DNA of 64,000 nucleotides from Hormiphora californensis (lineage: Eukaryota; Animalia; Ctenophora): positions 2,852,001 to 2,916,000 of the forward strand of contig CM035353.1 of NCBI GenBank assembly GCA_020137815.1. The letters run 5' to 3'. Positions within the stretch are counted from its first letter, which is position 1; each line of letters starts with the position of its first letter. Shown here piece after piece: positions 1,353 to 61,859 of the stretch. The notes below the pieces were generated by a model that had not been told where the DNA came from, made no database searches, and was given only the letters and a program-made list of their open reading frames with translations. The translations under genes were made by a program, and so were the position numbers.

Positions 1353-20511
<19,159 letters not shown>

Positions 20512-21813: not shown

Positions 21814-22356
21814 TTATTTCTTCTCGGCAGCGGCCTTCCTTCGCTTGAAGTCCCAGTTGTAGACCCTCGCCATGTTAACCTCCATCGTGGTAATCTGGTT
21901 GGAAAGGTACTCCAGATCTTCATCTAGCTGCCCGGCGTTCACAACAGCAGTATTGAGGTTCTTTGTCAGCAGGGTTACAGCTTCATCAATGGAGTACTCA
22001 AGCATGGTGTTGGCCCCCAGCCAAAGGAAGACCTTCTCGGTTGGCGGCACCTTAGCCACAGCGTGGACCTGGTCGGAGAGCAGGAAATGGGTGTTGAACT
22101 CTTCCTTTTTCTGTAACATGTGCTCCACGATTTCAAGTGTTTTCTCAATGTCAGGAATCTGGGCCCTCAGCCTCTTCTTCCGCTGGATCAGATTGAGCTC
22201 CATGTATTTGTACTTTTGGAGCTGCTCATCAAAACTTTGAAGGACGTTAGTTGCATTCTTCTCCTCCTTGGCATCCTCATTCATATATCCGTCCACGTCC
22301 TCCAGGAAGATTGCCTTAGGAATTCCCCGGTGCTCTTTGGTGGTGACTGCAGTCAT
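21814..22356 (-). CDS. VBP1: Prefoldin subunit 3 (VHL-binding protein 1), single coding exon, 180 aa
   Basis: Characteristic motifs GIPKAIFLEDVD, QKYKYME, KVFLWLGANTMLEY and QITTMEVNMARVYNWD. Confidence 0.97.
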   Translation of the reverse strand: MTAVTTKEHRGIPKAIFLEDVDGYMNEDAKEEKNATNVLQSFDEQLQKYKYMELNLIQRKKRLRAQIPDIEKTLEIVEHMLQKKEEFNTHFLLSDQVHAVAKVPPTEKVFLWLGANTMLEYSIDEAVTLLTKNLNTAVVNAGQLDEDLEYLSNQITTMEVNMARVYNWDFKRRKAAAEKK

Positions 22357-22480
22357 GGTGGTGGAAACCTAGAAACATTGAGGTGTGTGTGTTAACATTA
22401 TTATTATTATTAAATCTGTTTACAATAATTTGACACTGTCAATATTGCCCTCGGTGTGTTAACAACAGTATACAGAAATA

Positions 22481-24322: not shown

Positions 24323-27300
24323 TTAGAAGACAAGACACGATTTCTCGGGGTATCCGAGTTTCTCCAAGTTGGGCATACAAGCAAACTTTATCATGCCCGG
24401 TGGACCACACATGAGGACTGCAGTATCCCGGGCGGGTGGGGGAAGGTGGGTGGCAAGCATGTCTGCATTGACAAACCCAGTATCGTACTTCCAATCTGAA
24501 GGGGCAGGAGGGGGTGTTATCAGAAAGAAACAGGTGAGCTGTACTACCGAGAGAGGGAATGGGAGGAGAGAATGGTGTGAGAGAGAGAGGGAAAGGCGGG
24601 ATGTGAGTGAGGGGTCAAGGGGAGTGGGAGTAGGAGGGGTCTGGGGTTGGAAATTATTCTTTTCCTGTCTCGGATGATCAGTGCTTATCTAAATCGTGCT
24701 AATTAGTAGTAAACCAATTAAAACATGTACCTTGCCCCTCTGGGACTCGATCAACAGTATACCAAACATTGAACCTCTCATCCTGATCCATCCTCTCAAT
24801 TATATCCTTACAGAGGATGTCTTGAGGGGTCTGGTTAGCGAACAGTAGAAACACCTCAGTCTGATCGTAAGGGTTCTTCAGGATCTCCTGAGCTATCTGT
24901 AGCATTGGTGTGACACCTGTGCAGGAGGGGTTTGGTTTGGGCTATCTGTAGCATTGGTGTGACACCTGTGCAGGAGGGGTTTGGTTTGGTGTGACACCTG
25001 TGCAGGAGGGGTTTGGTTTGGGCTATCTGTAGCATTGGTGTGACACCTGTGCAGGAGGGGTTTGGTTTGAGCTATCTGTAGCATTGGTGTGACACCTGTG
25101 GGGGTTTGGTTTGGGCTATCTGTAGCATTGGTGTGACACCTGTGCAGGAGGGGTTTGGTTTGGGCTATCTGTAGCATTGGTGTGACACCTGTGCAGGAGG
25201 GGTTTGGTTTGGGCTATCTGTAGCATTGGTGTGACACCTGTGCAGGAGGGGTTTGGTTTGGGCTATCTGTAGCATTGGTGTGACACCTGTGTAGGAGGGG
25301 TTTGGTTTGGGCTATCTGTAGCATTGGTGTGACACCTGTGCAGGAGGGGTTTGGTTTGGGCTATCTGTAGCATTGGTGTGACACCTGTGCAGGAGGAGTT
25401 TGGTTTGGGCTATCTGTAGCATTGGTGTGACACCTGTGCAGGAGGGGTTTGGTTTGGGCTATCTGTAGCATTGGTGTGACACCTGTGCAGGAGGGGTTTG
25501 GTTTGGGCTATCTGTAGCATTGGTGTGACACCTGTGCAGGAGTGGTTTGGTTTGGGCTATCTGTAGCATTGGTGTGACACCTGTGCAGGAGGGGTTTGGT
25601 TTGGGCTATCTGTAGCATTGGTGTGACACCTGTGTAGGAGGGGTTTGGTTTGGGATATCTGTAGCATTGGTGTGACACCTGTGGGGGGGGGGGGGGTTTG
25701 GTTTGGGCTATCTGTAGCATTGGTGTGACACCTGTGTTGGAGGGGTTTGGTTTGGGCTATCTGTAGCATTGGTGTGACACCTGTGCAGGAGGGGTTTGGT
25801 TTGGGCTATCTGTAGCATTGGTGTGACACCTGTGCAGGAGGGGTTTGGTTTGGGCTATCTGTAGCATTGGTGTGACACCTGTGCAGGAGGGGTTTGGTTT
25901 GGGCTATCTGTAGCATTGGTGTGACACCTGCAGGAGGGGTTTGGTTTGGGCTATCTGTAGCATTGGTGTGACACCTGTATTGGAGGGGTTTGGTTTGGGC
26001 TATCTGTAGCATTGGTGTGACACCTGTGCAGGAGGGGTTTGGTTTGGGCTATCTGTAGCATTGGTGTGACACCTGTGCAGGAGGGGTTTGGTTTGGGCTA
26101 TCTGTAGCATTGGTGTGACACCTGTGTTGGAGGGGTTTGGTTTGGGCTATCTGTAGCATTGGTGTGACACCTGTGCAGGAGGGGTTTGGTTTGGGCTATC
26201 TGTAGCATTGGTGTGACACCTGTGTTGGAGGGGTTTGGTTTGGGCTATCTGTAGCATTGGTGTGACACCTGTGTTGGAGGGGTTTGGTTTGGGCTATCTG
26301 TAGCATTGGTGTGACACCTGTGCAGGAGGGGTTTGGTTTGGGCTATCTGTAGCATTGGTGTGACACCTGTGCAGGAGGGGTTTGGTTTGGGCTATCTGTA
26401 GCATTGGTGTGACACCTGTGTTGGAGGGGTTTGGTTTGGGCTATCTGTAGCATTGGTGTGACACCTGTGCAGGAGGGGTTTGGTTTGGGCTATCTGTAGC
26501 ATTGGTGTGACACCTGTGCAGGAGGGGTTTGGTTTGGGCTATCTGTAGCATTGGTGTGACACCTGTGCAGGAGGGGTTTGGTTTGGGCTATCTGTAGCAT
26601 TGGTGTGACACCTGCAGGAGGGGTTTGGTTTGGGCTATCTGTAGCATTGGTGTGACACCTGTGTTGGAGGGGTTTGGTTTGGGCTATCTGTAGCATTGGT
26701 GTGACACCTGGGTTTCGTTTGGGCCGCTCATCTTGGACAACAGTAAACAGTCACACAGACATCATAGTGCCGGATCATCCTTTCGGAATCACCACCAGAT
26801 CAGGAGGGGTGTGTTAGGTCACGTGACTGGTTTCAGCCAATCAGGGCCCAGTATTTCCTGACAGGAAAGTACATACCTGATCCACCAGCGATCATGCCAA
26901 TCTTTCTTCCCAGTACTCGCTCAATTTGACCCTTTTTGGTAACCTCAAACTTTCCCTGTCCGATGTAATGAATCTTGCCCTGTAATCAGAATAGAGGTTG
27001 TAAAAAGTATATCTTGCCCTAAAATTCGATTGAAATTGACGTAAACTTTGAAGATTACAAATTCCAACTACCACAGAGCTGGCAAGCGCTCTGGGGCCAT
27101 CTATCTACTGAAGAATAACTCAGGAATAGATCACGTTCCACTAACAGTGCTCTATCGGGAACCCGAGAGCCGGAAAACAAAGTGAAACAAGGTTACTTCA
27201 GATCTGAAGTAACCTTGTTTCACTTTGTACAGAGAAATAACACTAACCTTGGGACCCCTAACATCAATAGTGTCCCCTATCTGCATATTCTCAAGATACT

Positions 27301-29596
27301 GCGTCATTTTACCACCATCAGGGAACTTGGGGTGAACCCCTCCAAAGTAAACCTGCAGGGGCATTTAATTAACTATTTAATTAACTATTTAATTATTAAT
27401 CGTGTTATATGTAGGACACGAGTGCGGAGAAAAAAGCAATATATGACGTATAATGTTAACTTTTATTTATGTATTCTGTACCACGATGCACTGCTAAGGT
27501 TAACAATGTGTATGTGTGTATTACACATGGGAAACCACATAAAACTAACAAGTGATGACAACTGCTACACCACCGGATATTTCTCAAATAGTGTCTCAAC
27601 AACTACTGCATTATATGATCAGTACAAAATACTGGATGACAATTAACATTAGATAAAACACTAATTGTTATTAACAGGTTCAATACACAACCTTTTTCAC
27701 AACATCTCTCAGTACCCTAACCTAGAACCTACAGCCTATTAAACCCACCAGTCAACTAATTAATAATCTTTTCAATTGATTAATAACATATTCGACTAAT
27801 TAACTAATTACCTTAATTACAAGATCCATATGGCCTCCTTAATTAACTACAATTACCTTAATTACAAGATCCATATGGCCGACATCGTCATCTGAACTGG
27901 TGGGGGTGTAAGATCGTACAACCAGTTCATTGTTTACCGTGGCAACGAGACTCAGGTGGTTTCCTGCAGGACATGTGATTTAGTTACCGTGGCAACCAGA
28001 CTCAGGTGGTTTCCTGCAGGACATGTGATTTAGTTACCGTGGCAACCAGACTCAGGTGGTTTCCTGCAGGACATGTGATTTAGTTACCGTGACAACCAGA
28101 CTCAGGTGGTTTCCTGCAGGACATGTGATTTAGTTACCGTGGCAACCAGACTCAGGTGGTTTCCTGCAGGACATGTGATTTAGTTACCGTGGCAACCAGA
28201 CTCAGGTGGTTTCCTGCAGGACATGTGATTTAGTTACCGTGGCAACCAGACTCAGGTGGTTTCCTGCAGGACATGTGATTTAGTTACCGTGGCAACCCGA
28301 CTCAGGTGGTTTCCTGCAGGACATGTGATTTAGTTACCGTGGCAACCAGACTCAGGTGGTTTCCTGCAGGACATGTGATTTAGTTACCGTGACAACCAGA
28401 CTCAGGTGGTTTCCTGCAGGACATGTGATTTAGTTACCGTGGCAACCAGACTCAGGTGGTTTCCTGCAGGACATGTGATTTAGTTACCGTGGGAACCAGA
28501 CTCAGGTGGTTTCCTGCAGGACATGTGATTTAGTTACCGTGGCAACCAGACTCAGGTGGTTTCCTGCAGGACATGTGATTGGCTCATTTCTTACCGATGG
28601 GAGGGGAGGGGAAAGTGGCTCATTTCTTACCGATGGGGGGGGGGGTGAAGTGGCTCATTTCTTACCGATGGGGGGGGGGGGGGGAAGTGGCTCGTTTCTT
28701 ACCGATGGGAGGGGGAGGGGAAAGTGGCTCATTTCTTACCGATCGGTAGACCAAGGATGTGTTCATCTGATGGGAGGGCAAATCGAAACAATCTCGTATC
28801 ATGTGTTATCACCTATTAGGGAGCAGCAGGTCTAGTCATAAAGGTTCGAATACTGACCAATACCTGAGATTGGTAAATCTTTTGAAATATAATAAAAATA
28901 TAATAATTATAACTCAAATAACTGTAATCGTGATTGGTAAATCTTCTAAAACGGCCTATTTCCCAACTTACATCCTTCTTGATAAGCTTTAGTGGGACTT
29001 TGATGTCCGGATTCAGTGTAACAGGGGGGCCTTTCCTTTTCTTTCCCAGTAGTAGATAGAGGGTGACAAGGGAAATAGAGACTAGCGTCGTAATACCTGC
29101 TACCAACTGAAACACACGCTTGGTATTACTAATATGTTCTCTAACCCTGCAGAAAAAGGGTCGAGCAATATATTGGATGACCTGATACCGTGGGTCATTT
29201 CAATATATTGCTGGACCCTTTTTCTGCAGGGTTAGAGCCCAAGTCAATATTGAATGATCAAGTCTATTACTTCTGATGTTGCTGGAATGATATCCAGTAT
29301 TGGTTGCACCCTGCAGTACTCAGTATCTCTCTATCTCTCACCCACACACTAGTGAGGTACTTGATCTTACAGCGCACCGCCTTACTACACGCATAAATGT
29401 GCAAGTAGAAACACACAAAAATTGTCTCAATATTCTGTGAAATAACTGGAAAACTGGGATAACAGGAACCGACCGAATCAGGAAATACTGGTCCTTGATT
29501 GGCTGATAACCAGTCACGTGGCCTAAATAACGAGTTATAATTGGTTGTTTACTTGTTTCGGTCGGTTCCTGTGGGATAAAATACCTTAACGTCCAT
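24323..29596 (-). CDS. CYB5R: NADH-cytochrome b5 reductase, 8 coding exons, 297 aa
   Basis: Exons 29596-29585, 29106-28972, 28812-28740, 27963-27857, 27352-27248, 26979-26877, 24916-24731 and 24495-24323 total 894 nt and are phase-consistent. N-terminal membrane anchor; [17 protein letters not shown]; RSYTPTSS (FAD); [14 protein letters not shown]; MIAGGSGVTPMLQ (NADH); LLFANQT; MCGPPGM. Confidence 0.96.
24892..26710 (-). repeat. 49-bp tandem array (~37 copies) of CYB5R splice acceptor plus exon start
   Basis: Minus-strand unit ccaaaccaaacccctcctgcacag|GTGTCACACCAATGCTACAGATAGC. Confidence 0.95.
26711..26800 (-). mobile_element. Second copy of the (CCAAA)n-tailed retroposon
   Basis: Shares GTAAACAGTCACACAG and CATAGTGCCGGATCATCCTTTCGGAATCACCACCAGATC with the 59.5-kb copy. 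The flank CAGGAGGGGT (26801-26810) recurs in the adjacent array as the other TSD. Confidence 0.8.
27931..28580 (-). repeat. 50-bp tandem array (13 copies) of CYB5R splice acceptor plus exon start
   Basis: Minus-strand unit ctaaatcacatgtcctgcag|GAAACCACCTGAGTCTGGTTGCCACGGTAA. Confidence 0.95.
28581..28743 (-). repeat. Five tandem copies of the CYB5R exon-3 splice donor
   Basis: Minus-strand unit ATCG|gtaagaaatgagccac followed by a C-run. Confidence 0.9.
29140..29238. mobile_element. ~100-bp hairpin MITE in CYB5R intron 1
   Basis: CTCTAACCCTGCAGAAAAAGGGTC..GACCCTTTTTCTGCAGGGTTAGAG inverted arms. Confidence 0.75.
29463..29571. mobile_element. MITE family B
   Basis: TIR CAGGAACCGACCGA; 8-bp TSD TGGGATAA. 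Confidence 0.92.
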
Positions 29597-29932: not shown

Positions 29933-31557
29933 CTATTGGGCCCAGATGCTAAACCTCATGCAATTCTCCCTTCTACACCACTTGTAGAATTCTTCAAGTG
30001 CGCTGGTTGGAGTACTTAGATCGGCACAGACTACCAAAGGTATCCTTTTCATTCCGGAACTAGTATTTCTAGTAAGATCGTAATGGTAATTATATTGAAA
30101 AATGATGTTCTGTAGCAGTTCAGGGTCTTGGTGAAAGTGAGTATCTGTAACAATCTCTAAAACTTCAGGATGCAGTGCAGGGTCATCCACCAACTGGATA
30201 CTAATAACTGGCCATGATTTATCGTCTTCTATAGTCATCGAAACCTCCACAGCTATTTTACATATTTTGTTCGAAGTTCGTGTCTCAATGACCAAGATTT
30301 CAGAGTACTGTGTCTCGAATGGTGATGTCCAACAGTCATCAAACAGCCAATGAAAACCATTTTGACATGCACTGTCCTCCTTCCCTTTCAAATATTCCTT
30401 AAAAACAGCTTTTTTATTCACGCAATTTATAAGATAGCTATCCGGTAAAGTAGTTGTATCTGTAACGTCAAACAGCCCGTGCGTTCGGTCACTATGCCTT
30501 TTGTCCAAAGCTGCTGTTATTCGCATCAACAATTTCCGGTGATGATGTGTCACCAAATACAGTCACAGCAGTAATACAAGGAATAAACAAACTGGATACA
30601 TGAACTGATTCTCGGTTCCCCATCAAGCACTTTAACGGCATCCAGAAATGTTTTACAATCTGCAAGAGCTGGTATTTCAATCGGGTAGACGATCCTATCA
30701 GACGGATTGAGGGAATTACTAGAGCTGCTTAGAAGACTTGTAGTAGATAGAGAAAAGGGGACACTGGCAAAACTCTCAAAACGAGACACTAGATCTTCTT
30801 TGGTTATAGATCGCTGGACAGTTGTCAGAAGCTTCTGGTACAAGCTTCGATCCTGTTTGGAAACAGAGTGCAAGGGAAGGAGAAGTTAGAAATCTCTTTT
30901 CAATATCAGTCAATTTCACAGGATGGGGTTTACCTTCAAAATTCAAAATTAGCCAATCGTAGAGAACTGTAACTTCGTTACCTACTTGCCAGAGATAAAC
31001 ACAGGTCTGTGTTTACGTACTCCTGTTGATTAGGATCACGGGAGATGAATTCCTTGACAAGTGCTAATCGGAGAGTGGATAATCTTTCCAGCCCGATCTT
31101 TAGGGCTATCTTGGAGACTTCTGCTTGTTCCTCTCTTGAGAATATAAGCAGCCTCTTCCAATAGGAACATGCCCAGCTCCACTGATCCAGTTTTCAACCC
31201 AGAACAGAGATCAGGTGTAATACTTGAGACACTCATCAACCATCCATTCGACTTGAAAGACTGCACTCAGTTTGTTAATTTCCCTAAAATTGTCCCTATT
31301 TACCAAAATACCCCCGGTATAGCATGACTCGACGAAGCATTGAACTGAGGATTGAGAAAATTCCTCGACATCTAGCTCTTTCATTTGTTGCTTTCCCTAC
31401 CAGGTCAGGACATGACAAGGCTGTTGAGGGCCAGGGGGAATGAGCTGGTTCGGACAATATCGCCCCCTTTACACATTAGTTGCAGATCGTTTAGTCCCTT
31501 CAAATCCAGAAGGTGTCTTCCAAAGTTCATGGGTACTGTGCAGGTCTGCACTGCCAT
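29933..31557 (-). pseudogene. Intronless BTB/POZ-domain gene with multiple frameshifts (pseudogene or assembly indels)
   Basis: ATG at 31557. Joining frames gives NDLQLMCKGGDIVRTSSFPLALNS..ELDVEEFSQSSVQCFVESCYTG..NRDNFREINKLSAVFQVEWMVDEC, a BTB-like pattern. It continues through ORF pieces 31266-31036, 30873-30550 and 30556-29933. Confidence 0.65.
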
Positions 31558-32256
31558 ATCTATTTAAGGGAGGGAAGGTAGGAAGCAATTGAAATTTTTC
31601 AAATGGCTATAGCCACACAACCACATGGAAGAATTGAGTAAACTAAAAAGTATCTGATGGATAATCGATGGCTCTAACCGACAGCCCCAAAAATGCTCTA
31701 GCCAGACCCTAACAACAGCCCTAACCCCTCTCAACTGCCAAAATTGTTACCACCCAGATTTTAACGCTGGCCGATTTTAACTTTGCCCGCCGACCGGACC
31801 CAGTTCAGTTCAATTAAAATACTATCAAATGCGCGGCGGTGTCACCTCGATATATATATTTGCGCGTGGTTGACAGCGCGCGGCTCAAAGTCGAACACCG
31901 TTGTACTTTTATTATATCACGGTCATGGCGCGTTACGTCTTTGTTGTGTCAACTAATTTATCTTTACCACACTGCTGCTGCAGCAGACGGTGGTATTGAT
32001 GTTGGGAATGGTCCATATTATGAGTCAGATAAACAGGGATTCAGTTACACTCGCCCCCGTTACAGAGAATAAAAACATCCGTGTTGAACAGTTTAAACGA
32101 ATAAATCAACTAAAATAACACTCGACATATCGAACATAATGTAAAATAGAATAAAAGAAGGGTGTGCGGTATCTATAATAGATCGTATAAAAAGAGATAA
32201 AAAGAGCAGCATTTTCATATATTTGTTACTCCCTCACACACACACACACACACATA

Positions 32257-33428: not shown

Positions 33429-36400
33429 TCAATATTGGTCTTCTGTTTTTGCTACTTTCCTAGTCTCCCCTCCACCTCCCCCAGGGTCCTCCCACCCTCG
33501 GCGTTTGTCGCGGGCCCTCTTATTTTGGAACCATAACATTATCGTATCGTGGGTGAGGCCCGTTTCTTTTATTAGTTCGGGTAGACCGTTATCTGGTCGT
33601 GCGTAGCGTGAAACTGTGTTGTAATAGCGCTCCATTGCGGCAACCTGCGGGGAAATTAATTAATGAGGATATTTAGAATTTAGAAGGGTGTTGAGTGTAC
33701 AGTGTGTACACTGTACACTCTCTCATCAGAGTAGGTCCCATTACATCCCTGATTACACATCGCTAGTGAGTACAGCGCAGGAGGGAGAGAGAGAGGGGTG
33801 ACCTCGTACCCAAAGGGACGAGGGTAGTATCAAGAGCGAGGTAGGGGTGAAATTATGTAATAATTAATTTTATCTTAGTATGAACCCCTCAGAAAATATG
33901 AGACTCACATATATGTGTGAAGCTTGTTATGTTCTAACCCTTATTTATATGTTGGTAACGAAATTACCTCTCGTAAGACGTAAATAAGGCATAGCGGTAG
34001 TAAGGGATGTTTTAGGATGCCCGCAGTAATTTCTAAACCTCCTTTACACACACATGCGGTGAGGCATTAGTCGACGAGCAATGCTAAACTCACCTGATCA
34101 TCATTAAATCTGGTCCGGTGTCTTCTATAGGGTTTACTCCGTGCAGTATTAAATCCCATCATGTTGAGCAGTGTGTTACTGGTGTTGTTATTTGGTTGAT
34201 GGTGGGATGCAGTTGTTGTTGTTGGGGTTGAATTACCGTCGTACATTGGCTGTCTGAAAAGTTTTGGGGGGGTTTTGGTGATGATAGGTTGTTTAAAAAG
34301 ATAGCTTTTGGTTGAATTTGGTGATGGTAAGTTGTTTAAAAAGATATTGTGTTTTGGTTGAGTTTGATAGGCTATTTTGGATGATGCTGGGACTATTTAT
34401 ATTTGCTGACAGTATTGACATCCCACACTGACACACACACGCAACCAATCAAATGTAAATGTAATCCAATTAGTGTAACATTATACGTCTACACACACAC
34501 ATCATGTCCCCAACAGGCAATCACAAACTCTTTACCTCTATCTTACTTTCTATCACACACTCTCCCCAGTGTCTCAGTCTAGTGATGTCACTCTACTCTC
34601 AGCCTATTCAGATGACATATTATACACTCTTACACACTCATATATCTCCTTCCTACTAACATGTCTGCCCCCCTTCCGTGGTACTACTACAGCTCTCTTT
34701 TATAATTATAGAGGTTCTCTGAGTACACATAATATTATACCCCCTCCCTCACACTCTAGAGAGTTCGGTACAGGGTGTCACTAAATTATCCAGACACCCC
34801 GATATATAACATGTACACGGGGAGGGTGTCACTAGATTAGTCTAGACAGTGTTGTACCAGTCACTGCAATGACCGCACAGATATTATGAAGTGAGACAAA
34901 TGATCATTGCAGTAAAATTCCTAACTAAAAATAGCTGATATTATAATATATCCATACCGCCGAAACCTGATTTGCCTCGAGTTTTTGATATATCAGGCTT
35001 CCAATTAATCGAATGAATGTATCATGTGTAGTGTATATCAGAAAATGTGTACATTCTGATGTATATTTTACTTACACGTTATTAACTAGTCCGCCAGTTG
35101 AGGGTGTAGAGGAAAACATGAGATGTGGTAGATGCCCATCTGCAGGAATGGAAGGGGGATGTTAGATTAGAGGAAGGATGTTAATAGAGGGGGGATTTTA
35201 GATAAGAGGGGGATGTTAGATTAGAGGTGGGATGTTAGATTAAATATGGATGTTAGAGGGGGAATGTTAGATTAGAGGGGGATGTTAGAGGGGAGAGAGG
35301 AATTGTGTTTGGGTGTAGCTGAATGAAAACTGGCAAATTAAATAGGATCACACATGGCGCACACACGAACCAACATACATTAGATGGGAGACCTGTGTAA
35401 ATTTTAATAATATATCCGTAATAAATGATACACATGTAGCTCAGGTCATGTAGAATATACTCCAGGAACCGACCGACACAAGTAAACAACCAATCAGAAC
35501 TCGTTATTTAGGTCACGTGACAGGTTATCAGCCAATCAGGGACCAGTATTTCCTGATTCGGTCGGTTCCTGATATACTCACTATCATCTGTTATATTTTC
35601 TTTTGCCGTGCTGGGAGAGGTTGGGGTGTTGGATGATGTATCAAATCCTCCTTGTAGTGAAGTGGTCACCGCTGATCCTCCCCCTCCGGGGGTTTTACAA
35701 ATTTTACCCTGAAATGAATGATTTAATTTGGTTTGAAAAAGGGGGGGTCGGCCGATATTGGCCTTGAATATAAATAGTGGTACACACACTTACAATGTCA
35801 ATAATAAATTAAACAAACGGGGTCAATAAATTATATAAATAAAAGATTTAGTCTATTTGGTAGATACTGTCATCCCGACCGCTGCTGCCTTCTGCCCTCA
35901 GTCGTCCGCGGTGCCCCCTGATGGAAATGGTGACGGAGCGGACCATGGCAAATGACAACCTTAGCCTCAGGTACCGGATACACTGATCGTATGAATATCC
36001 TGTTTTAGTCGCCTTCTTCTCAGCCAATTGTTTCAAAGTCTTATTAAATTCCCTTCCAAGGCCCTTGGTAACGAAGTTACCCCTCCCTTGCCGGCGCGGC
36101 GTGCGAAGCACGCCAAACGAAGGCCGCGAAGCGGCCTGAGTAGGGGTAACAAACCCGCTTTGATTCACTTCAAAAATTAATAGCTCCTCAACCACTCAAT
36201 GAAAATGCACCAAATTTTGGTATTCCCCACCAAATTGTCTGAAAATTATAATTCTATACTCATACTTGAAAAATTATCTCCGGAACCTTGGTTTTGAGAT
36301 CAGTTTTAGGTGTTAATGATGAAAAAAATTTTTGAAAAAGTAGTTCAGGTATGCTTAACATCATATCAAAGATCGTGGCAAAGTTTGAAGTTTCTATCTT

Positions 36401-39400
36401 CAAAGGTCTGGCCATCAAAATTAAAAAGGTCTTGAAGTTGAACCATTTGTACAAAACATGTTGTAACTCAGCTTCTACTTTGCCAAATTAAACCTGGTTT
36501 GAAACACTGAATTGCTAATCTATCCCTCCGAATACGGACGAAGTTTGAAACCGCCATCTCTATTGACCGCTCTACAACACTTGTTTCTGTGAAAGATATC
36601 GGGAAAGCAACGAGATTTGGTCTCGGTGTGGCCCTGTGCGCGGCTCAAACCCCTAAGCTAGAACTATGTAGTGTAGACTACAACTTTTCAGTGCTCAGTA
36701 TGACGGTTTGAGCGCGTTATAAAAATAGGGTAAGCGGCTCTGATACCTCTAAACAGAGTGTGAGGTGTCTTCGATACCAACCAAGGCCCCCTGTAGTTGA
36801 CATGACCAGTGGTGTGAATGTTGACTTTTCCACCTCTAGGACACGGTGGAGGTAGGATGTTTTCTTCTCTCTCTCGTGTTTTTCATATGTTTTGGCGATG
36901 GTCTGGTTTGAGTTGGACGATATCCTTGGATTGAAAATCCTTACATCGAAATAGATATTGTCCATATCCGACCAAAAGCCGCGACTACTGATGTCAAGTC
37001 TGGCGCCATCGGCTGTTATAGTGCCAGCCGGAAGATTCACCCCTCTAACATTTAGGAGATGGGGTTCGATCTTAGTGTCGACACATACTTTATTCAGTTC
37101 GTGGCCAATGAAATCTCTCACGTTGTTGTGTCGGAAACATACAAAACCTCCGAGTTTACAGGATATGAGGTGATCGATGGTGTTTTCTTCCCCACATGCA
37201 CAATGCTGAGGTAAGGCCTGTCCGACGAGAGGCAGGTTATAACGGGCTGACATGGCGTCGTGCCACTCCTGTCTGTTGAGGGTGAAGTTCAAAGATTGGA
37301 GAGGGAGACATGTTAACCAGGATGAGGCCCCCTTTTCCATGAGTAGGTCCAGGTTTCTGATTTCAGCTGTAGTCATCATGTTTTTGATCTCGTCGATTTT
37401 CTTCTGATGAATATCGTTCTTGGTTCGGTGGATGAGGGTTTTCTTCTCTGCTCGTTCCTTTTGGTTGATTTTGAATGTTTCCTGTTGAGCTAGGACTGCA
37501 ACTGAGAGCTCTTCAGTAACAAACTTTGAGAAACTGTAGTCTGAGTCTGATGATATTTGAGGGTTGTCTACTCCTAGTCCTCCGAATCTTACAGGGAGGG
37601 CTGCAACCAATCTCAAGGTTTCATTTACAACTGGCTGACCGGTTATCGCCGGGAGGAGCTTCTGATGAATTTTCTCCTCAATAGTGCCTAGTTGGTCCGA
37701 AATCCCAGGAGTGGTTCTCATGAGATAGCTCCAACGTTTTGATAGTCCGATGTTGTATGCAGTGTATGCAAGCTGAGGTTCGTTCAGGGCAATATCACAA
37801 ATCTGATCAATTTCACTCTCCCATTTCGCAACTTCGTTCCTCACAAACTCTGCCTGACCTTCCTCCGTACCAATGTATGAACCCAGGTAACGCTGGCCCT
37901 GAGAAGTGATGTTTACATCAGGGAACATGGATCGAGCAGCTTCTTCAAATTCTGGTTTCACAATCAGCCAGGATTTCCCTGGATTTGGGAGATAGCCATA
38001 ACCAGGTCCATCTTGTTTAACTTTCTCCCACCAGGTTTTTACAGTACTGAGAGTGCCCCCGCCAAGGCCGTCGTCTGCGTAAAAGATTTGAGTCAATTTA
38101 GAGTCCTTATCCTCAACAGACCGTATAAGCGGCATTAGGCAGCAAGCGTACATATGCATAGCAGCAGTATCTCCCTGGGTTGTCCCTTCAGACGACTTCA
38201 AAACTTCATTGTTCTCGCCATCGCATAAAAATAAGTTCGCGGTTAGTCCATATGTATTTTGTAAATAAATCTTAAATTCAGGGCAAGTGTATTTAACGTT
38301 GTTTAAGGCAGCAATTCGATTTAGGGAGTTGAAAGCATTACTCGCATCAATTAACAATAAACATTCAGTACTCTCAAGATCAAACAAGTCTCTAGCAGCG
38401 TGAACAGCAGCTTCAACGCCGCCTTCCAACCCTGCACACAGCTGGACGGGTGCAGTACACTCTATCAGGTCTGGTTTGAGAGCTTGGGTAATGACTTTTC
38501 CAGCCAGTCTCCTCAGAACTTCCCCTATTCCAATGGGCCTGATACCTGTTGGCCGTTTGCTCAGTGGAACCAAGCGAGATGCAACATAGGCTGATAAAAG
38601 TTTTGGATCTGTAGGTTCTGTTGCTAGTTTGAAGGCAAAGGTGGCAATAGCCTGCGCTAGCTCGGAAGATGCAGGACTGAGTTTTTTAGATAGCAGCATA
38701 TGCTTCCATAGATCGGAGTCAGCCCCTGATGGTCCTCCTGATCCGGATAACATTTTCGCTGCCTTGGTTACTGCCCCAGCTGATATCTCAGAGAACATGC
38801 AATGTGTATTCGGGAGTGCTGGTCCTTGAAGAAGGGATGATGTCTCTGAACTAGGTGGGTGTTTCTTGATCAGTTCACCCACGACTTCCGGTGTGATAGG
38901 AACCGGTGCGACATCACTGTCCCGTATCGCTCTCAGTGCTTGACTCACTTTTCCACGTAGCATGAGTCTGAACAGACCGTATGGTTTGAAAAAGGGTAAA
39001 ATTAAATAATTATGGAACGTGGCACTACGAAGAATATTCAGTCTAACAAGAACAATGCAACTTTCTCTCTATGCAGCAGCTACCCATCGGCTGTTGAAAA
39101 GTATACATAACGCCAATCGGTGTTGGGGTAATACAATTTCCAAAAAAATAAAACAACAAAAGCTGAAATTTATAAAAAATAACGTACCTGTACAAAACTT
39201 TCCACGATAAGTTCGCTGATTTCACTTAGCTCGCTCATACTACTCATACTCGTCAGGTTTTGTATCAGGTTTTGGGTGGCCGCACACTCCCCTGCAGTAG
39301 CAGGGGATGCAGTAGTTGGGAAGGGAATGGCTTCTGAATTAGTGACCACCGGTTGCTCGGATACCTAGGGAAGAATAAGTAAGTTTCGAGAACATGAATA

Positions 39401-39596: not shown

Positions 39597-42500
39597 TAGT
39601 AGGTATCTAGTACTGAGATAGAGAATAAGCAGTCTCTCCTCTTCTCTAGATAATCTAGTTAAAAATTGCTTGCGAGTGAGAGAGAGAGAGGATTAAATTT
39701 CATCGCTCGTTGTTTTGTTTTATCTGTCGATGTCTGTATCCTGGGGTCATAGAATTCTCAGAGAATTTACCAAATCCTGCAAATCAACTATGGACTATTA
39801 TACTGCCCCTTTTTTTTAGAATGAAGTATTTGCATTTTTTAAGTTTCGAGAAAATCGACTTTAAAGTTTTTTAGAGGGTTTTTCGGAACTAAAATTGTCA
39901 TAGAAGCCCAAATAGTACGTCAAACGATTTATGACTTATACCACAAGAATCCTGAAGGAATTCTGCAGGACTTCCAATTATCAGCTATCATCAAATTTGT
40001 CTCAAATTGATGTCAGGCATCAAAATTGATGCCTTACTCTGTTGGTTACTTCACTTATATTACAGTTTTGAAAATACTTCCGTTGCTAGACTGATATCGA
40101 CTGAAGCATAATTTTTCGTGGTAGATACTTCAGTAATTACTTCACTCAAAAAAATACTTCATCATAATAGCAACAAAAGCACCTAAAAAGTACTTCACTT
40201 GCATATACTTCAGTAATTACTTCATTCCTAAAAATACTTCTTCAGAACTGTATTCAAAATGCCTAAAAGTAACTTAATCGAACAAAAGTGTACATGTGCT
40301 TCAAAATCGCAATCTTACTTCAATATTTTGGATAAAATCACAAACGAAGTTAATTTTCATTTAACACGCAGTGAAGTATAAAATGTGTTAGAATTCTTGC
40401 TAGTCTTGAAAGTAACTCCAGAGCAGCAGCTGCAGACAAACAGACGCACAGACAAACAGACGCACAAATTACAACTGCAGCAGCCTGCAGCAGCCTGCAG
40501 CAGCATAAAGAGATGGGCCCGCCCGCCCTTCGGGCGGAATGTTAAAATCATGGTGCTGATAAATTGAGCGAAAACAGAAAAACGCTATGGCAACCCTCAA
40601 ACTAAGACGAACCTGCAGATAAAATCTGGAAGATTAATCTGTTCCGGTACGAGTCATACTTTGAAATTGGTTGAGTTCGGCTTGTAATATCAGAGTGAAA
40701 CATGGAGATTGGAGATTCAAGAATTTTCTTCCGACCTCTACACAGGTCCGTGTTCATAAAATATGACAGACATACAAACAGATCACAGACATACAAACAG
40801 ATCACAGACAGACACACAGACAGACACACAGGCCAGTTCATTACATGTTTTAACAATCGATTGGCTGATAACCAGTCACGTGACCTGAATAATGAGCTCG
40901 GATTGGTTGTTTATTTGGTCCGGTCGGTTGCTGAGAGATAGAGAAAGGGTCTGACAGAGAGATAATATCGATGAGAGGGAACGGGAGTGAGATTGTCTCC
41001 ATTCGGGTTATTCACGAAGAGGAGTATTTGTCTAGGAGTGTGGGAATGTAAGGACAGAACAGTTAGATGACAATATATTTTGTTAATATTTGGATGATTT
41101 GTATCCGTATTCTTTAATTTTTTACAAACATTTCAAATTCCCGTGAGTGTGATAGTTCAGTGACATGGGAGACAGTGGGAGGCAAAGTGACAGGGGTTAC
41201 AATGGGAGGCAAAGTGACAGGGGTTACAATTGGAGATAAGGTGACAGGGGTGACAAAGGGATATAAGGTGACAGGCCCTCACTCACCCCCCTTCCCCAGG
41301 TCATCCTGCCTCCTAACTCACCCCCTTCCCCAGGTCATCCTGCCTCCTAACTCACCCCCCTTCCCCAGGTCATCCTGCCTCCTAACTCACCCCCCTTCCC
41401 TAGGTCATCCTGACCCCTAACTCACCCCCCTTCCCTAGGTCATCCTGCCTCCTAACTCACCCCCTTCCCCAGGTCATCCTGCCTCCTAACTCACCCCCTT
41501 CCCCAGGTTATCCTGACCCCTAACTCACCCCCCTTCCCCAGGTCATCCTGCCTCCTAACTCACCCCCTTCCCCAGGTCATCCTGCCTCCTAACTCACCCC
41601 CTTCCCCAGGTCATCCTGCCTCGTAACTCACCCCCCTTCCCCAGGTTATCCTGACCCCTAACTCACCCCCCTTCCCCAGGTCATCCTGCCTCCTAACTCA
41701 CCCCACTTCCTTAGGTTATCCTGACCCCTAACTCACCCCCTTCCCCAGGTCATCCTGCCTCCTAACTCACCCCCTTCCCTAGGTTATCCTGACCCCTAAC
41801 TCACCCCCTTCCCTAGGTCATCCTGCCTCCTAACTCACCTCCCTTCCCTAGGTTATCCTGCCTCCTAACTCACCCCCCTTCCCCAGGTCATCCTGCCTCC
41901 TAACTCACCCCCTTCCCTAGGTTATCCTGCCTCCTAACTCACCCCCTTCCCTAGGTTATCCTGACCCCTAACTCACCCCCTTCCCCAGGTCATCCTGCCT
42001 CCTAACTCACCCCCCTTCCCTAGGTTATCCTGACCCCTAACTCACCCCCTTCCCTAGGTTATCCTGCCTCCTAACTCACCCCCTTCCCCAGGTCATCCTG
42101 CCTCCTAACTCACCCCCTTCCCCAGGTCATCCTGCCTCCTAACTCACCCCCCTTCCCCAGGTCATCCTGCCTCCTAACTCACCCCCCTTCCCTAGGTCAT
42201 CCTGACCCCTAACTCACCCCCCTTCCCTAGGTCATCCTGCCTCCTAACTCACCCCCTTCCCCAGGTCATCCTGCCTCCTAACTCACCCCCTTCCCCAGGT
42301 TATCCTGACCCCTAACTCACCCCCCTTCCCCAGGTCATCCTGCCTCCTAACTCACCCCCTTCCCCAGGTCATCCTGCCTCCTAACTCACCCCCTTCCCCA
42401 GGTCATCCTGCCTCGTAACTCACCCCCCTTCCCCAGGTTATCCTGACCCCTAACTCACCCCCCTTCCCCAGGTCATCCTGCCTCCTAACTCACCCCACTT

Positions 42501-45467
42501 CCTTAGGTTATCCTGACCCCTAACTCACCCCCTTCCCCAGGTCATCCTGCCTCCTAACTCACCCCCTTCCCTAGGTTATCCTGACCCCTAACTCACCCCC
42601 TTCCCTAGGTCATCCTGCCTCCTAACTCACCTCCCTTCCCTAGGTTATCCTGCCTCCTAACTCACCCCCCTTCCCCAGGTCATCCTGCCTCCTAACTCAC
42701 CCCCTTCCCTAGGTTATCCTGCCTCCTAACTCACCCCCTTCCCTAGGTCATCCTGACCCCTAACTCACCCCCCCTTCCCTAGATGATCCTGCCTCCTAAC
42801 TCACCCCCCTTCCCTAGGTTATCCTGACCCCTAACTCACCCCCCTTCCCCAGGTCATCCTGCCTCCTAACTCACCTCCTTCCCTAGGTCACCCCCTTCCC
42901 CGGGTTATCCTGCCTCCTGATAGTACCTGATCACTGACTGATCACTGACGGGATGATTGATTGGATGACAAGGTGACTGGGTTACAGTGGGAGGCAAAGT
43001 GACAGGGGTTACAATTGGAGATAAGGTGACGGGGGTTACAGTGGGGGACAAGGTGACAGGGTTACAATGGGAGACAAGGTGCAAGTGTGACAAAGGGAGA
43101 TAAGGTGACAGGGGTGACAAAGGGAGACAGGGTGACAGGGGTTACAATGGGAGACAAGGTGCAAGTGTGCCAAAGGGAGATAAGGTGACAGGGGTGACAA
43201 AGGAAGACAGGGTGACAGGGATGACAAAGGGAGATAAGGTGACAGGGGTTACTGTGGGAGACAAGGTGACAGGGGTTACAGTTGGAGATAAGGTGACAGG
43301 GGTGACAAAGGGGGACAAGGTGACAGGGTTACAAAGGCTCCGAAGTTTCATCAAAAACAGGGTAACGTGCTTTTAAATCACGTCCTGATAACAATAATTA
43401 TTATCATAATAAAAACGGTTTATTGTAATTGCAATAGGAGAGACAAAACGAAACGGGTATACATTCAATGTACATGGTGGCTAACTAAGCAGCAGCTGCG
43501 TGTGGTGGGAGAAATGGCTTACCCTATATTTTTTACTATTTTACAACAAATGTCTGAGAGTGACAGAAACATTGTACCGCTGCAGCATGATACGATACAC
43601 ACGGATGTCCGTTAGCTACTATTTGAACTCCAGACAGGTTGAGTTTTCAAACCAGCTGCAGCTGGCCCCCTAGCCTTTCGGAATGATGTAAATTTGAAAC
43701 CAAACGCTAGGGCAATAACTTATAAAACCTTATGAGGTCAGTGTTTGACAACACTGTTTGTGGTGTCTCTCTCTCTTTGTCTCAGAGTGACACTCTTACA
43801 TAGAGATAATCCCAGAATCATGATCACCCCGGCCCCCAGACATCTCTTCTCCACTTGTTGAGTTACCTAACAACTGGTTGTGTTGTGTCGTTACGACAGT
43901 ACGGTACTGGAACATAATGCTACCTTTGAATGTGGGGTTCTAAGTTCGAAGAATGAGATTGGAGTGACGTAGTTGTGACGGTGAGGATGAGTAATTCGAG
44001 ATGTGAACGATAATTATAATTACTCAGAATAGAATAATTATTATAGGGATCGCCTCCGTTCGACCTTCATCATGATGATGCTGCAGCAAAGAACAAATCT
44101 TGGAAATTACTTCATTTGGCCGGACTTGTGTTATAAATGGCACATATTATAATAAAAAATGAAGTATTCTTAAGTTATGAAGTATTTTTTCTGGATGCGA
44201 CAAGAAGCATTTGAATTCCACAGATTTATGAAGCATTTTCAAATTGAAGTAAATGAAGTGAAGTATCTTCTGATTTGAAAATACTTCAAACAAAATCTGC
44301 AACTGATTTATGAAGCATTTTCAAATTGAAGTAAATGAAGTGAAGTATCTTCTGAGTGGACAATACTTCAAACAAAATCTGCAGCTGATTGAAGTATTTC
44401 AATAGAATTTTTTAAATGAAGCAAACAACTGAAGCAAATTTTTCTGCGGTTATTACTTCTATGGTAGAAAAGTTTAACGAAGCAGTATTTATTTCCGAAT
44501 TATATTAGCGAAGCAATTGCCATTTGCTTCACTTTTCTGCAGTTTTTCAAAAATAAAAGTACTTCACAAAAAACACTTCACTCTATTTTTTGAAGATTGA
44601 GACACGAGACTTAGCCCATCTTGTAGATCTTTTTCTCCTGATCAAGATGGTATAAATAACTCAAAATCGCCAAAATTGCAAATACTTCATTCTAAAAAAA
44701 AAGGGGCAGTATATTGGAGGAGTTCACATCAAGAAGCGACTACTCAACAATTAGATAAGAACCAGTCTGCTTGCTTGTCCAGTTGTTGTTGAGTCTGTAT
44801 CTCGTCTGAACCTCTATCCCTGTTAGCGTAGTGTGACATCTGTTCTGGTCTGTATCATCCCACTTGTAGGTTCATTATTCCTGTATCCTCTCCTTTTCAT
44901 TTATATGTATAGTATAGTCTGTTACAGCTGTAGTACCCCCCTTTTTTTCTTTTGTATCTTATTTTTCTATATTTTTACGTTCAGGTTTTGTGATTCCCCT
45001 CTTGTCCATTATTGGACGTATCTCTCCTGTCTCCTGTTTGCTACATTCATGTATTCGAGTGTCATCCCCTTTTCCTGCTTCCGGGCCTCTCATCCTGGCT
45101 TGCCCGCTGCCCTGGTCCTCTGCCTAGTTTCTCTTTCCTCCTCAGGCCCTATTTTGACTCTCCAGGCTGCCCATCTCTTCTCTGTATCTTCTTTGTCTCT
45201 CATTTCTTCCTCACTTTCCCTCACTATCCCTATTTTTGCCCCTGCCAGCGCATTTTTGCCCCTGCCAGAGCATTCTTCCTCTTTCATCAATCATCATCCC
45301 CCCCCTTTTTTCCCTCTCTCGCATGTCCCATTCTTATCTTCTTCAGCCCAATTTCTCCAATTAGGTGTGTTCTTTCTGTTCCACCCTGCCCCTGGTAGGA
45401 TTTCCCCCTTCTCCCTCTCTCGCTCTCTACCCTTATTCTCTCTTTCTTTTTCGCTCTTTCTCACTCG

Positions 45468-45514
<47 letters not shown>

Positions 45515-48500
45515 GCAATACCATTCTTGATACTCACAGAGACACATCTCAATTCTCTGATTCCTGATGATGAAATGGTGTTCCCCAGCTACAATCTTTA
45601 TCGGGCAGACCGAATTAATCGGAAACAAGGGGGAGTAGCTATTTATGTACACTCCGCCCTACTAGTTGGTGCTCACGAGAAGGTCTCGACATCTTTCTGT
45701 GAAGCAGGTATGGTGTACATTGAGTCGATCAACACCACTGTTATTGGTGTCTATAAGCCACCTCCCAACTTCTCCAAACCTGAACTCTCCTGTCCAGTAG
45801 AGCACTTTGAAAGTCTTTGTTCCCAGATTGTGAAGTTTGTGTCCAAATTCCCGTCATCAAACATCATTATTGCTGGAGATTTTAACCTCCCCTTTGTCAA
45901 CTGGGCAGATCTGAACATAACCACTGGTGGTAATGTAACGAGCTCTGAGAGGCAATGTGCCGAGCACCTCCTTCGGTTAAGAGAGGACCTCTTCTTGGAA
46001 CAAGTGGTAGAGGAACCTACTAGGAGGGGTAAATCGGACAACATTCTGGATCTTGTTTTTGTAAATAACGATCTGCTGGTCCAGGAAGTACTTGTAACGG
46101 GCACATCTCTCTCGGATCATGATCTGGTTACGGTAAAACTGAGAACCAGTGAATTGCCAGGTATATTTGAACATGGTACTCGTCCCCAGAGACCCCGTAC
46201 ACTCACCAGGAAGAACAGATGGGACCTGTTCTTAGCTGTTGACTCCACCCTTGCTGCTGGATCTCGCTCTGCAAATGCTAGGCGATACGATATATTAGGT
46301 ATCAGCCAGGGAATAACAGCCCCGGCTACATGGTTCCTGACACTAATGAAACCCGCCTCACCATCATCATTCATAAACACTATGTTTGACTCCCTTGATC
46401 TGATGAAGGCCGACTGGGACGCTATTAGGAGGGATCTAGCGCTGTTCTGCTGGGACGAAATCCTCGCCATGGAAGATCAAGACATGGCCTGGAATGAGTT
46501 CATAACTGTCATTGGGGAAATATGTGCTAAACATTCTCCCTACCGGGGACCTTCTGCTAAGAAGAGGAAACCCGCTATCCCCCGTGACCGAACCCTTCTA
46601 CTCAGGAAAAAAAGAATCTTGAATACTAGAGTAGCTGCTATAAAATCACAACACCCCGGGGATCTAGCCAAAATCAATGCACTCTACGAACAGCTAGGAG
46701 AAATTGAACTAAAGATGGGTGAAAGTATTAGATCTCAAGAACGAGGGCGTGAAAAGATAGCAGTCACCAAGATGAGGACCAATCCTAAAGCATTCCATGC
46801 ATTTGTCAATAGGAAGAAACCAAAATCAAGCCGGATCGGTCCTCTCCGTGACTCAGAAGGAAACCTTACGACGGACCCTGAACGCATGGCTAACATATTG
46901 CAGGAACAATACGTAAAGGTTTTTTCTTCCCCCTCAGCCGACTCGTTGCAGAACAACCCCAACGCTCAACCCAGTGCCAAGCTTCATGAAATAACAATCT
47001 CTGCCGAGGCCATAAGGAAAGCGATTGCGGATATTCCCATCTCATCTGCACCGGGTCCGGACAAGTTCCCTTGTCTTGTGCTGAAGGAGTGTGCCCCTGT
47101 ACTCGCCCCAATACTGTCCCAGCTATGGGAAGGTGCTTTTAACTCAGGGCAGACAGCGGCTATCTTCAAGCACCAAACTATCGTACCCATCTACAAGAAA
47201 GGGAATAGAGGACTCGCCTCCAACTACAGGCCAGTCTCGCTGACTTCTCATCTCTGCAAACTATTTGAAAGAGTTGTAAGAAAAGAGCTGGTTGGTTTTT
47301 TGGAGGAGCAAGAGGTAATCACCGGAGACCAACATGGATTTAGAGTTGGCAGATCTTGCCTTACTCAGTTGGTCGATCACCTGGACTCCGTACTCAAAGA
47401 CTTAGAGGCAGGCCATAATGTGGACGTGCTTTACGTCGATATGGCTAAAGCATTCGACAAGGTTTGTCATTCAAGACTCCTGACAAAGCTCGCCTCAGTG
47501 GGAGTGGGTGGAAATTTACTGACATGGCTGGAATCTTTCTTGGTGGGCCGCACCCAGTCCGTTGTGGTAGAAGGTAAACTATCAAGACCAGAAACTGTAC
47601 GGTCTGGAGTTCCCCAGGGAACAGTACTGGGCCCGATATTATTTTTACTCTATGTAAATGATATGCCAGATGTACTCCAGCACTCCAGCATGAAACTGTT
47701 TGCGGATGATGCTAAACTCCACAAAACCATTCGAGATGAATCAGATAGGTCCCTCCTACTCGATGATATAGAAAGAGTGAGTGAGTGGGCTGTCAAAAAC
47801 TCTATGGAACTCAACGCTGATAAATATCAGCTTCTCCAGCACGGAAAGAAGGATCTACTCAAGCAGCCCTACACACTACCAACTGGCACCACAGTCTTTG
47901 GAGACGCCACTGTTAGGGACCTTGGAATCACTGTGGATACTCATCTCAACTGGAAAGAGCACACTGCCCAGATAACTAAGACTGCAAATCAAGTATCTGG
48001 AAGAGTGCTAAGGGCATTTGAAACTCGAGACGAGGAAACCATGCTCACCTTATTCAAAACTTACATCCGACCTCATCTGGAATACTTGTCGCCTATTTGG
48101 TCACCCCACCAAATTGGTGAAATCCAAAGAGTAGAGGCTATCCAGAGAGCATTCACCGCGAAGATTGAGAACTGCCAGCTGCTCAATTACTGGCAGAGAC
48201 TCGACTACCTGAATCTCTACTCTCTCCAAAGAAGAAGAGAGAGGTACCGTATTCTGTACATGTGGAAAATTCTCAGAGGCATAGTTCCTAACCACCAAAA
48301 TCTTGTGTTTCGGAACTCCCCGAGAAGAGGTCCTTATGTGGAGCGCCCACTTGGAAAATCAGGACTCAAAAGCATTAACTCCACAATATTCCACTCCTGT
48401 ACATCTACTGCTGCCGCACTGTTCAATGCAACTCCAAAAATTGTGAAAGAACAGTTGACCCTCGAAGCAGCAAAGAAAGAACTTGATAACTTCTTAACTA

Positions 48501-48653
48501 AAATCCCAGATAACCCCCCTATTAAGGGTTACGGGACGCAGAACACCAATAGCATACTGGACTGGTGTCTGCAGAGGAACTACTGATACGAAAGTTGCTT
48601 CCCGGCTGATCCAGCTTAACCTTTTCGAAGGTAATCGAAGGTAAACTCTCTCT

Positions 48654-57172: not shown

Positions 57173-57274
57173 CAGGAACCGACCGACACAAGTAAACAAC
57201 CAATCAGAACTCGTTATTTAGGTCACGTTATCAGCCAATCAGGGACCAGTATTTCCTTATTCGGTCGGTTCCTG
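57173..57274. mobile_element. MITE family B
   Basis: TSD GTATAACT/ATATAACT (7/8); small internal deletion. Confidence 0.88.
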
Positions 57275-57640
57275 ATATAACTTAACTCATGTTATCAGTT
57301 ATACATCCAGGAATATTGAAACGATTTCTTTTATAAAACGTGAAACTAGAAAAAACCCGCGACACATTATGTTGCTGGGATAACTCGTAATAGTTAAAGC
57401 CGTTAAAGCTTTATATAACGTTGTTGGCAGGACTGCCCACTATAATACTAGTAAAGGAATCACATTTGAGTTTGCCAGCGCAATGATACAAAAGGCGTTA
57501 AATAAGTGTTAAATAAAAGTATGTAAGGAAAAACATGAGGGATGCTGTATAATAGACGTCTGTATATATTGAGTGAAATTTAGCATGATATTATATGAAT
57601 AATGAATGTATTATCTCAGATTAACTCTGTTATATTATAG

Positions 57641-57749
57641 CAGGAACCGACCGAAACAAGTAAACAACCAATCAGAACTCGTTATTTAGGTCACGTGACT
57701 GGTTATCAGCCAATCAGGGACCAGTATTTCCTGATTCGGTCGGTTCCTG
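57641..57749. mobile_element. MITE family B (partial copies also at ~2480-2521, ~26815-26860 and ~40859-40933)
   Basis: Full TIRs; degenerate TSD. Confidence 0.88.
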
Positions 57750-58072
57750 TTATATAGTGTGTTACATATCATTGTACATATATGCCCCGTTAAAAATATC
57801 CCATCTTCTGTCCTTGGCACGATCAGTATTATGACTTATAAGGCCTGGCAATTACTACCAAAGGAGATATATGGCTTATAAGGCCATGGGAGGAGGTTAT
57901 TAACCCCCCCCCCCCCGCTTAGCCTCATTAAGTGGATTGTGTAATATAAAGTTACACACTGCACATAGTGTATTCCCTTGTGTACCAACTCAGGTTGTGC
58001 CTTGTTCGACCCTCTCTCTCTCTGCGAGGAGAGCATGACCCCTCAATATTCCTGATCCTATATCAAGTCAGC

Positions 58073-61859
<3,787 letters not shown>

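Follow-up and report, generated by a model that had tools for sequence, protein, structure and literature searches.

Tandem repeats that copy a splice site and yet leave splicing undisturbed are known from amphioxus as mirage minisatellites. They occur in Adh3, the globins BflGb6 and BflGb9, troponin C and PGBD5, and normal mRNA is made according to the available text of the reports (PMC3087553, PMC3902484). In humans, the 844ins68 allele of CBS carries an extra junction; splicing takes the distal site, and the additional stretch of exon is removed along with the intron, as the accessible part of that account describes (PMC2630376). Junction VNTRs have also been described for human F7 intron 7, IFI6 (6-16), CBS intron 13, LMNB2 and PDGF. 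In the available portion of that study, the exon-proximal donor alone is used in the F7 VNTR, and the authors favour oriented scanning, their data fitting exon definition only partly (PMC1557585). For ctenophores, a genome report gives 13% tandem repeats, and the part of its text at hand does not mention splice-site repeats (PMC8527503); the literature searched, with subscription journals outside it, holds no ctenophore mirage minisatellite.

In the 64,000-nt stretch of Hormiphora californensis DNA analysed here (the window), an array of this kind stands before exon 7 of an intact NADH-cytochrome b5 reductase gene (CYB5R) on the minus strand. As in amphioxus, head-to-tail copies join the 3' end of an intron to the 5' start of the exon (PMC3087553, PMC3902484). 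As far as those texts are available, the two systems are also alike in their units of 10-160 bp, in copying both donors and acceptors, in having several arrays per gene and in their signs of repeat turnover; however, the CYB5R array has 37 spare copies against 3-6 in BflGb6, its unit holds a retroposon tail and a target duplication, and its host is a ctenophore. It shares with CBS 844ins68 a duplicated intron/exon junction and the use of the distal site, but the human allele, as described in the accessible part of its account, has one 68-bp extra copy and no retroposon, whereas CYB5R has an expanded array (PMC2630376). With the human VNTRs it shares a series of identical splice sites among which the exon-proximal one is chosen; those VNTRs, in the portion of the study available, are donor arrays, whereas the exon-7 array is made of acceptors, CYB5R having donor copies as well (PMC1557585). 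We consider it probable that the exon-7 array is a mirage minisatellite in an intact CYB5R, which likely arose by ordinary repeat growth and is likely removed in one step with intron 6. Most likely, it belongs to a known kind of repeat that the gene tolerates and is not a stepwise splicing device. What is new here is the ctenophore lineage, the presence in a single gene of four junctions that have been copied, a visible retroposon seed, and the position of this retroposon, both copies of which (2 of 2) stand shortly upstream of acceptors.

The window model of CYB5R comprises eight coding exons in a single open frame of 297 aa, and 292 of the 297 residues are identical in a protein (P0001) whose source contig is 1115 nt long, so that introns would not fit within it. 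The open frame and this agreement bear out the numbering of exons 6 and 7 in an earlier note on this DNA. A domain search matched FAD_binding_6 or NAD_binding_1 in three of the exons, and exon 7 has as its nearest named relative a protein from Bolinopsis microptera (76% identity). Immediately upstream of CYB5R lies the remnant of a BTB-domain gene with several frame breaks (29933-31567, minus strand). The features of the gene, its array and the retroposon are as follows.

29585-29596, minus strand: CYB5R coding exon 1 (4 codons)
28972-29106, minus strand: CYB5R exon 2
28740-28812, minus strand: CYB5R exon 3, with an ordinary acceptor reading AG|GT
27857-27963, minus strand: CYB5R exon 4
27248-27352, minus strand: CYB5R exon 5, with a single ordinary acceptor, likewise AG|GT; the exon 4-5 joint is present in an RNA contig
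26877-26979, minus strand: CYB5R exon 6
26811-26876, minus strand: original 5' part of CYB5R intron 6, with donor GTATGT at 26876
26801-26810, minus strand: target-site duplication, upstream copy, 10 bp
26711-26800, minus strand: 3' end of a 5'-truncated retroposon of a high-copy family, with a degenerate (CCAAA)n tail; supported by a second copy in the window and by DNA contigs
24892-26710, minus strand: mirage minisatellite before CYB5R exon 7, 37 units of 32-53 nt with 37 spare acceptors; supported by the repeats and by reads of two samples
24922-24931, minus strand: target-site duplication, downstream copy, 10 bp, 5 nt before exon 7
24731-24916, minus strand: CYB5R exon 7, NAD-binding domain PF00175, true acceptor 24916; RNA contigs run on into exon 6
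24323-24495, minus strand: CYB5R exon 8, up to the stop codon; the spliced joint is present in an RNA contig
59430-59591, minus strand: second retroposon copy including its own target duplication, in sense orientation, ending 7 nt before acceptor 59422 of a zinc-finger gene

On the minus strand, the motif CAG|GTGTCA occurs 38 times from 26707 down to the true acceptor at 24916, and the 37 spare CAG|GT sites span 26707 to 24965. A unit consists of the first 25 nt of exon 7, the (CCAAA) tail, the 10-bp target duplication and the last five intron bases. The tandem unit crosses the authentic exon-intron boundary of CYB5R, and the extra copies are intronic and bear the splice signal. This composition had been described in the earlier note and is seen in the units, except that the target duplication is no longer present at the first acceptor; the statement that all array acceptors read CAG|GT also holds, at 38 of 38 sites. 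The note had counted about 37 identical acceptors: the count is right, with 37 spare sites, but the units are not all identical, as 12 variants are present. One 49-mer accounts for 20 of the 37 units and 11 variants for the remaining 17, the lengths of the 12 ranging over 32-53 nt. The same 20 intronic bases stand at 22 of the 38 acceptors, and these 22 are also alike over at least 11 exonic bases. The array is far above chance (TRF score 3183, 35 copies at 96%) and makes up 1791 nt of the 1960-nt intron 6. Variant units are interspersed within it, and together with a 32-nt deletion unit they fit expansion by slippage or unequal exchange.

The seed of the array can be recognized. As claimed before, the retroposon body (26711-26800) and the other target duplication (26801-26810) sit at the upstream edge of the array. 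The element has a target-site duplication, a simple-repeat 3' tail, 5' truncation and dispersed copies, which are traits of non-LTR retroposons. The second copy, at about 59445-59576, is longer; it carries a (CCAAA)4 tail and a separate target duplication of 14-15 bp, and it confirms that the element is a retroposon. The earlier proposal that the array originated at a retroposon junction holds up. No array lies beside the second copy (59430-59591). Many DNA contigs extend from the 90-nt remnant into more of the retroposon. We regard the retroposon reading as sound because of the second copy, the target duplications and these extending contigs. An Rfam search with the second copy gave chance-level matches only (best E 0.46), and we do not claim a ribozyme in the element.

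We propose the following course of events. First, the retroposon landed 5 nt short of the acceptor and duplicated 10 bp, as the anatomy of the locus and the second copy show; the intron without it would have measured roughly 80 nt. Removing the element and the array on paper would leave an intron of about this length, with CTAAC about 19 nt before the exon; this branch-point-like motif, at 26817-26813, is now 1.9 kb from the true acceptor. A dispersed-repeat fragment also lies in this 5' part of the intron (26814-26861). Second, the 49-bp segment from the tail through the 25 exon bases would have been duplicated, and slippage or unequal exchange would have multiplied the copies. Third, the copies fall on the intron side, leaving the protein unchanged if the exon-proximal site is used, as is seen for mature RNA; a duplication across an acceptor would thus do no harm and could grow like any other minisatellite.

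The presence of the array was followed in sequencing reads. Seven of 16 runs were examined, as contigs (X1 and X5-X10, with X2-X4 and X11-X16 left out), and the contigs were compared on the stretches flanking the array, including one or two units. Run X1 may be the source of the window itself; its 47-nt unit contig reaches a depth of 2288 against 67 for exon 7 (about 34-fold), and the unit words of this contig have 21 copies in the window; by this rough measure, the X1 reads hold at least as many unit copies as the assembly. X5 and X6 represent one sample from another study, in which variant units and the exon-4 array described below are present. The exon-7 array is thus found in DNA runs of two samples, with 5 differences between them in 168 nt of exon 7, and no empty-site allele is seen among the listed joints or loose ends of the examined runs. 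That the array is an artefact of assembly or library, or a private silent allele, has a negligible probability in our view. Long near-perfect repeats can indeed be mis-assembled, and no contig in the examined runs spans the whole array; against this, the unit words stand in X1 at a depth tens of times that of single-copy sequence and are abundant in the X5/X6 sample, the retroposon 5' junction is unchanged in X5, and variants are scattered among the units. One X1 contig departs from exon 7 at 24778 and continues with 219 nt similar to a dispersed repeat near 27410; a heterozygous insertion or a chimera is possible.

Full exon 7 is joined to exon 6 in the contigs of all four RNA-type runs, which come from four studies. 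In X9, a joint with 26 nt connects exon 6 to the 25 shared bases, and the sequence continues as exon 7. In X8, a 31-nt piece ending at the junction is followed by exon 7, and only the last bases of exon 6 are visible; in X7 and X10, the contigs pass from the acceptor end of exon 7 straight into exon 6. The RNA runs derive from environmental samples, and X7, in which intron 7 is skipped, was classed as RNA by guess. The mRNA is spliced at the authentic site, as in other mirages, on the evidence of these four runs, which are of low depth, and of P0001. Exon 7 of X7 and X10 shows no difference from that of the window, and exon 7 of X8 bears the three variants of X5, the second, array-bearing DNA sample. 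Judged by these exon haplotypes, the transcripts would derive from array-bearing alleles, and both array-linked haplotypes appear to have been seen spliced.

On the intron side and over 25 exon bases, the spare acceptors agree with the true one; therefore, the cue must lie downstream. The choice would most likely rest on cross-exon pairing with the exon-7 donor at 24730, over an exon of 186 nt, which is the simplest candidate, and one-step removal of the array is likely because only the last acceptor precedes the whole exon and its donor. No YTRAY motif occurs within the array, and so an A in the (CCAAA) tail is probably the branch point. Other causes were considered. RNA folding of four stretches gave z from 0.5 to -2.2, which makes no case for a structure masking the spare acceptors. 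A G-quadruplex was rejected, as the array is G-rich on the template strand but holds 0 canonical motifs; G runs are nearly absent in two of six arrays checked.

Translation from any of the 37 spare acceptors reaches a stop 18-98 codons past exon 6. The earlier claim that their use shifts the frame and reaches stops is thus right about the stops (37 of 37) and wrong about the frame for some of them: acceptor 36, for example, retains 81 nt and keeps the frame, yet still reaches a stop. Occasional use of the nearest spares would presumably be cleared by nonsense-mediated decay. A leakier version, in which a fifth or more of the transcripts use spares, mainly the last few, so that nonsense-mediated decay follows and copy number lowers the CYB5R dose, seems unlikely to us. 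It draws on the stops from all spares, on the last spare acceptors, which with the same donor would give exons of 235 and 267 nt, and on human IFI6 (6-16) and CBS intron 13, where two pseudo-sites are used besides the true donor in the portion of the study available (PMC1557585). However, the intronic part of a unit is uncovered by the RNA contigs of the four runs, and no junction from exon 6 to an intronic site appears in them. This argument is weak at the depth concerned, 2-11 with rare forms dropped; three of the runs are oligo-dT and all are shallow contigs, which show the main product and say little on minor forms or intermediates. The array's presence in two samples with differing exons 7 and no listed empty-site allele suggests a low cost, and the available texts on amphioxus mirages describe no aberrant mRNA (PMC3087553, PMC3902484).

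The earlier note named AG|GT as the signature of recursive splice sites and of the tandem-duplication model of intron gain, and it proposed that the array could be removed stepwise through a weak regenerated donor. In recursive removal, exon 6 would be joined to a spare acceptor, the regenerated CAG|GTGTCA would act as a donor, and the array would be excised stepwise. The array does share with known recursive sites an AG|GT juxtaposed inside an intron, here at all 38 sites. The CAG at the end of exon 6 matches the exon side of a donor perfectly, and by plain match count the regenerated donor reaches 5 of 9, level with the weakest real one. Recursive sites are known in small and medium human introns too, in the part of the report available (PMC10156609), and the final mRNA seen is compatible with recursion. 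Mature RNA would be the same after one-step or stepwise removal; hence, the RNA data do not separate them. In spite of this, we hold recursive removal to be very improbable. With a donor matrix for positions +3..+6, trained on the small set of 18 donors modelled in the window, the regenerated donor scores -5.18 (rank 214 of 256), against -1.06 to 3.88 for the 18 real donors in leave-one-out scoring, whereas human sawtooth sites rebuild strong donors according to the accessible text (PMC6110456). Recursive introns of Drosophila are at least 11,341 nt long, with segments of at least 2,596 nt and conserved sites (10.1101/006163), compared with an intron of 1.96 kb, a spacing of 49 nt and a recent repeat origin in CYB5R; great intron length is a usual trait of recursive sites and no absolute one. 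A 49-nt unit is also shorter than any of the 18 modelled introns, the shortest of which is 119 nt. Moreover, four of the five duplicated acceptors in the window cannot ratchet and yet persist.

AG|GT is in fact ordinary here, standing at 5 of 18 modelled acceptors and at three of seven in CYB5R; among the five duplicated acceptors it occurs in the exon-7 array alone. The copied non-AG|GT acceptors in the window show that arrays of this kind can form and last with no ratchet. The AG|GT of the exon-7 array is simply the start of exon 7, a phase-1 Gly codon (Gly-Val), and its reading as a recursive signal is poorly supported: it is common, four of five duplicated acceptors lack it, and the regenerated donor falls below all 18 real donors at +3..+6. 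A further elaboration, a repeat-born ratchet that re-splices in steps of a few units, with an AG|GT mirage expandable at no cost and seeded by an acceptor-homing (CCAAA)n retroposon, is equally a long shot. If recursion were true, the array would be a ratchet made by repeat expansion and far smaller than known ratchets.

Intron gain does not describe the locus either. In the Rogers model, a duplicated exonic AGGT segment creates a new intron (PMC3443670), and intron gain by tandem duplication concerns exonic segments (PMC2812944), as far as the available text of both goes. CYB5R likewise has AGGT-containing tandem copies that are spliced out; however, an intron that already had a donor of its own lengthened about 24-fold, whereas the model, in the portion available, makes a new one (PMC3443670). 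The unit is half intronic, and the RNA uses a separate, older donor at 26876. We rejected this candidate, as the intron keeps this donor and its own 5' part and no new intron position appears.

The exon-7 array is not alone in the window. Eighteen introns were modelled by reading-frame continuity in four genes: CYB5R, a gene that we take to be mitofusin-like, a C2H2 zinc-finger gene and a gene with a CSTF1-dimer-like domain. Their further duplicated splice sites are listed below.

27934-28580, minus strand: second acceptor mirage in CYB5R (exon 4), 13 x 50 bp, CAG|GA, an internal control for the exon-7 array; found by TRF and also in the second sample
28580-28743, minus strand: donor mirage in CYB5R, 5 copies of the exon-3 donor, unit of about 37 bp
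27797-27880, minus strand: duplication of the CYB5R exon-4 donor, two copies, 45 bp
52772-53151 and 54466-54597, minus strand: intron of the CSTF1-dimer-like-domain gene, with about 8 acceptor copies and 2 donor copies; a homologue (P0027) supports the junction
58979-59120, minus strand: acceptor duplication in the C2H2 zinc-finger gene, 3-4 copies
16396-16505, minus strand: acceptor duplication in the mitofusin-like gene, 2 copies

In these four genes, 8 of 36 splice sites are tandemly copied (7 by motif count, the exon-4 donor by TRF), which is an upper figure because the genes were chosen for having arrays. Acceptors make up five of the eight (38, 13, 8, 3 and 2 copies), and four of the copied junctions lie inside the 5-kb CYB5R gene. 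By hand count, 8 of 18 TRF loci with a period of at least 25 straddle a modelled splice site, where two blocks of one unit were merged and one microsatellite was dropped (otherwise 8 of 20). Against an assumed background of 10-15%, this gives P of 0.0002-0.003, or 0.0008-0.008 without the exon-7 array. For one neighbouring exon, a homologue search gave no match, and a profile-free search gave nine matches, one of which supports its exon junction. The units of the exon-4 array resemble 26-nt mini-exons 24 nt apart, each holding a donor-like site with a score of 0.51, within the range of real donors. Judged from its letters, the exon-4 acceptor array is a better candidate for aberrant inclusion than the exon-7 array.

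Further repeats in the window have a similar look. An array of 47 x 34 bp (41277-42890, plus strand) has a unit like a textbook acceptor (CTAAC, pyrimidines, CAG|GT) with no evident adjoining exon; it is flanked on both sides by a 27-bp array and is possibly an orphaned mirage. On the minus strand, repeats lie at or just upstream of apparent acceptors at 4112-4194, 35153-35293, 52372-52429 and 59812-59879, several of them built from branch-point-like motifs; the first two are candidates.

The finding extends mirage minisatellites to a ctenophore and suggests that animals in general tolerate copied splice sites, Ctenophora often being placed as sister to all others. Within one gene, CYB5R offers matched natural tests of splice-site choice, with 38 AG|GT acceptors, 13 non-AG|GT acceptors and 5 donors. 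The exon-7 array also provides one concrete seed for a mirage, namely a retroposon junction.

The position of this seed is a lead of its own. Both retroposon copies in the window are in sense orientation, with 5 and 7 nt from the target duplication to the exon, and under rough assumptions the second, independent copy would come to lie like this with a probability of about 1%. It is possible that the retroposon targets acceptors, or is tolerated at them with its tail giving the branch A, a lead with n=2. That (CCAAA)n-tailed retroposons home to 3' splice sites is doubtful on these two copies. Metagenome scans with the retroposon core and with the start of exon 7 both gave 0 loci, so that neither additional insertions nor an empty-site allele came to light. 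The targets of both copies are C-rich and resemble the (CCAAA) tail. A third (CCAAA)3 tail (51441-51455, plus strand) has a different body upstream and perhaps belongs to a related family. Two non-LTR reverse-transcriptase ORFs lie in the window, at 36717-39068 (minus strand, 783 aa) and 45365-48586 (plus strand, 1073 aa with endonuclease); neither region has similarity to the (CCAAA)n element.

Other elements and genes were noted in passing. A dispersed MITE-like element of about 110 bp with inverted ends is represented by five near-full copies, and the fragment at 26814-26861 in CYB5R intron 6 belongs to it.

9680-9787, 29459-29571, 35463-35576, 57173-57279 and 57641-57754: MITE-like element copies

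A small LDLa-domain ORF (15540-16142, plus strand) lies antisense within an intron of the mitofusin-like gene. The window also holds, on the minus strand, a prefoldin ORF (21814-22368), a homeobox exon (33429-33659) and an exon of cysteine-rich ephrin/TNFR-like repeats (4816-6138).
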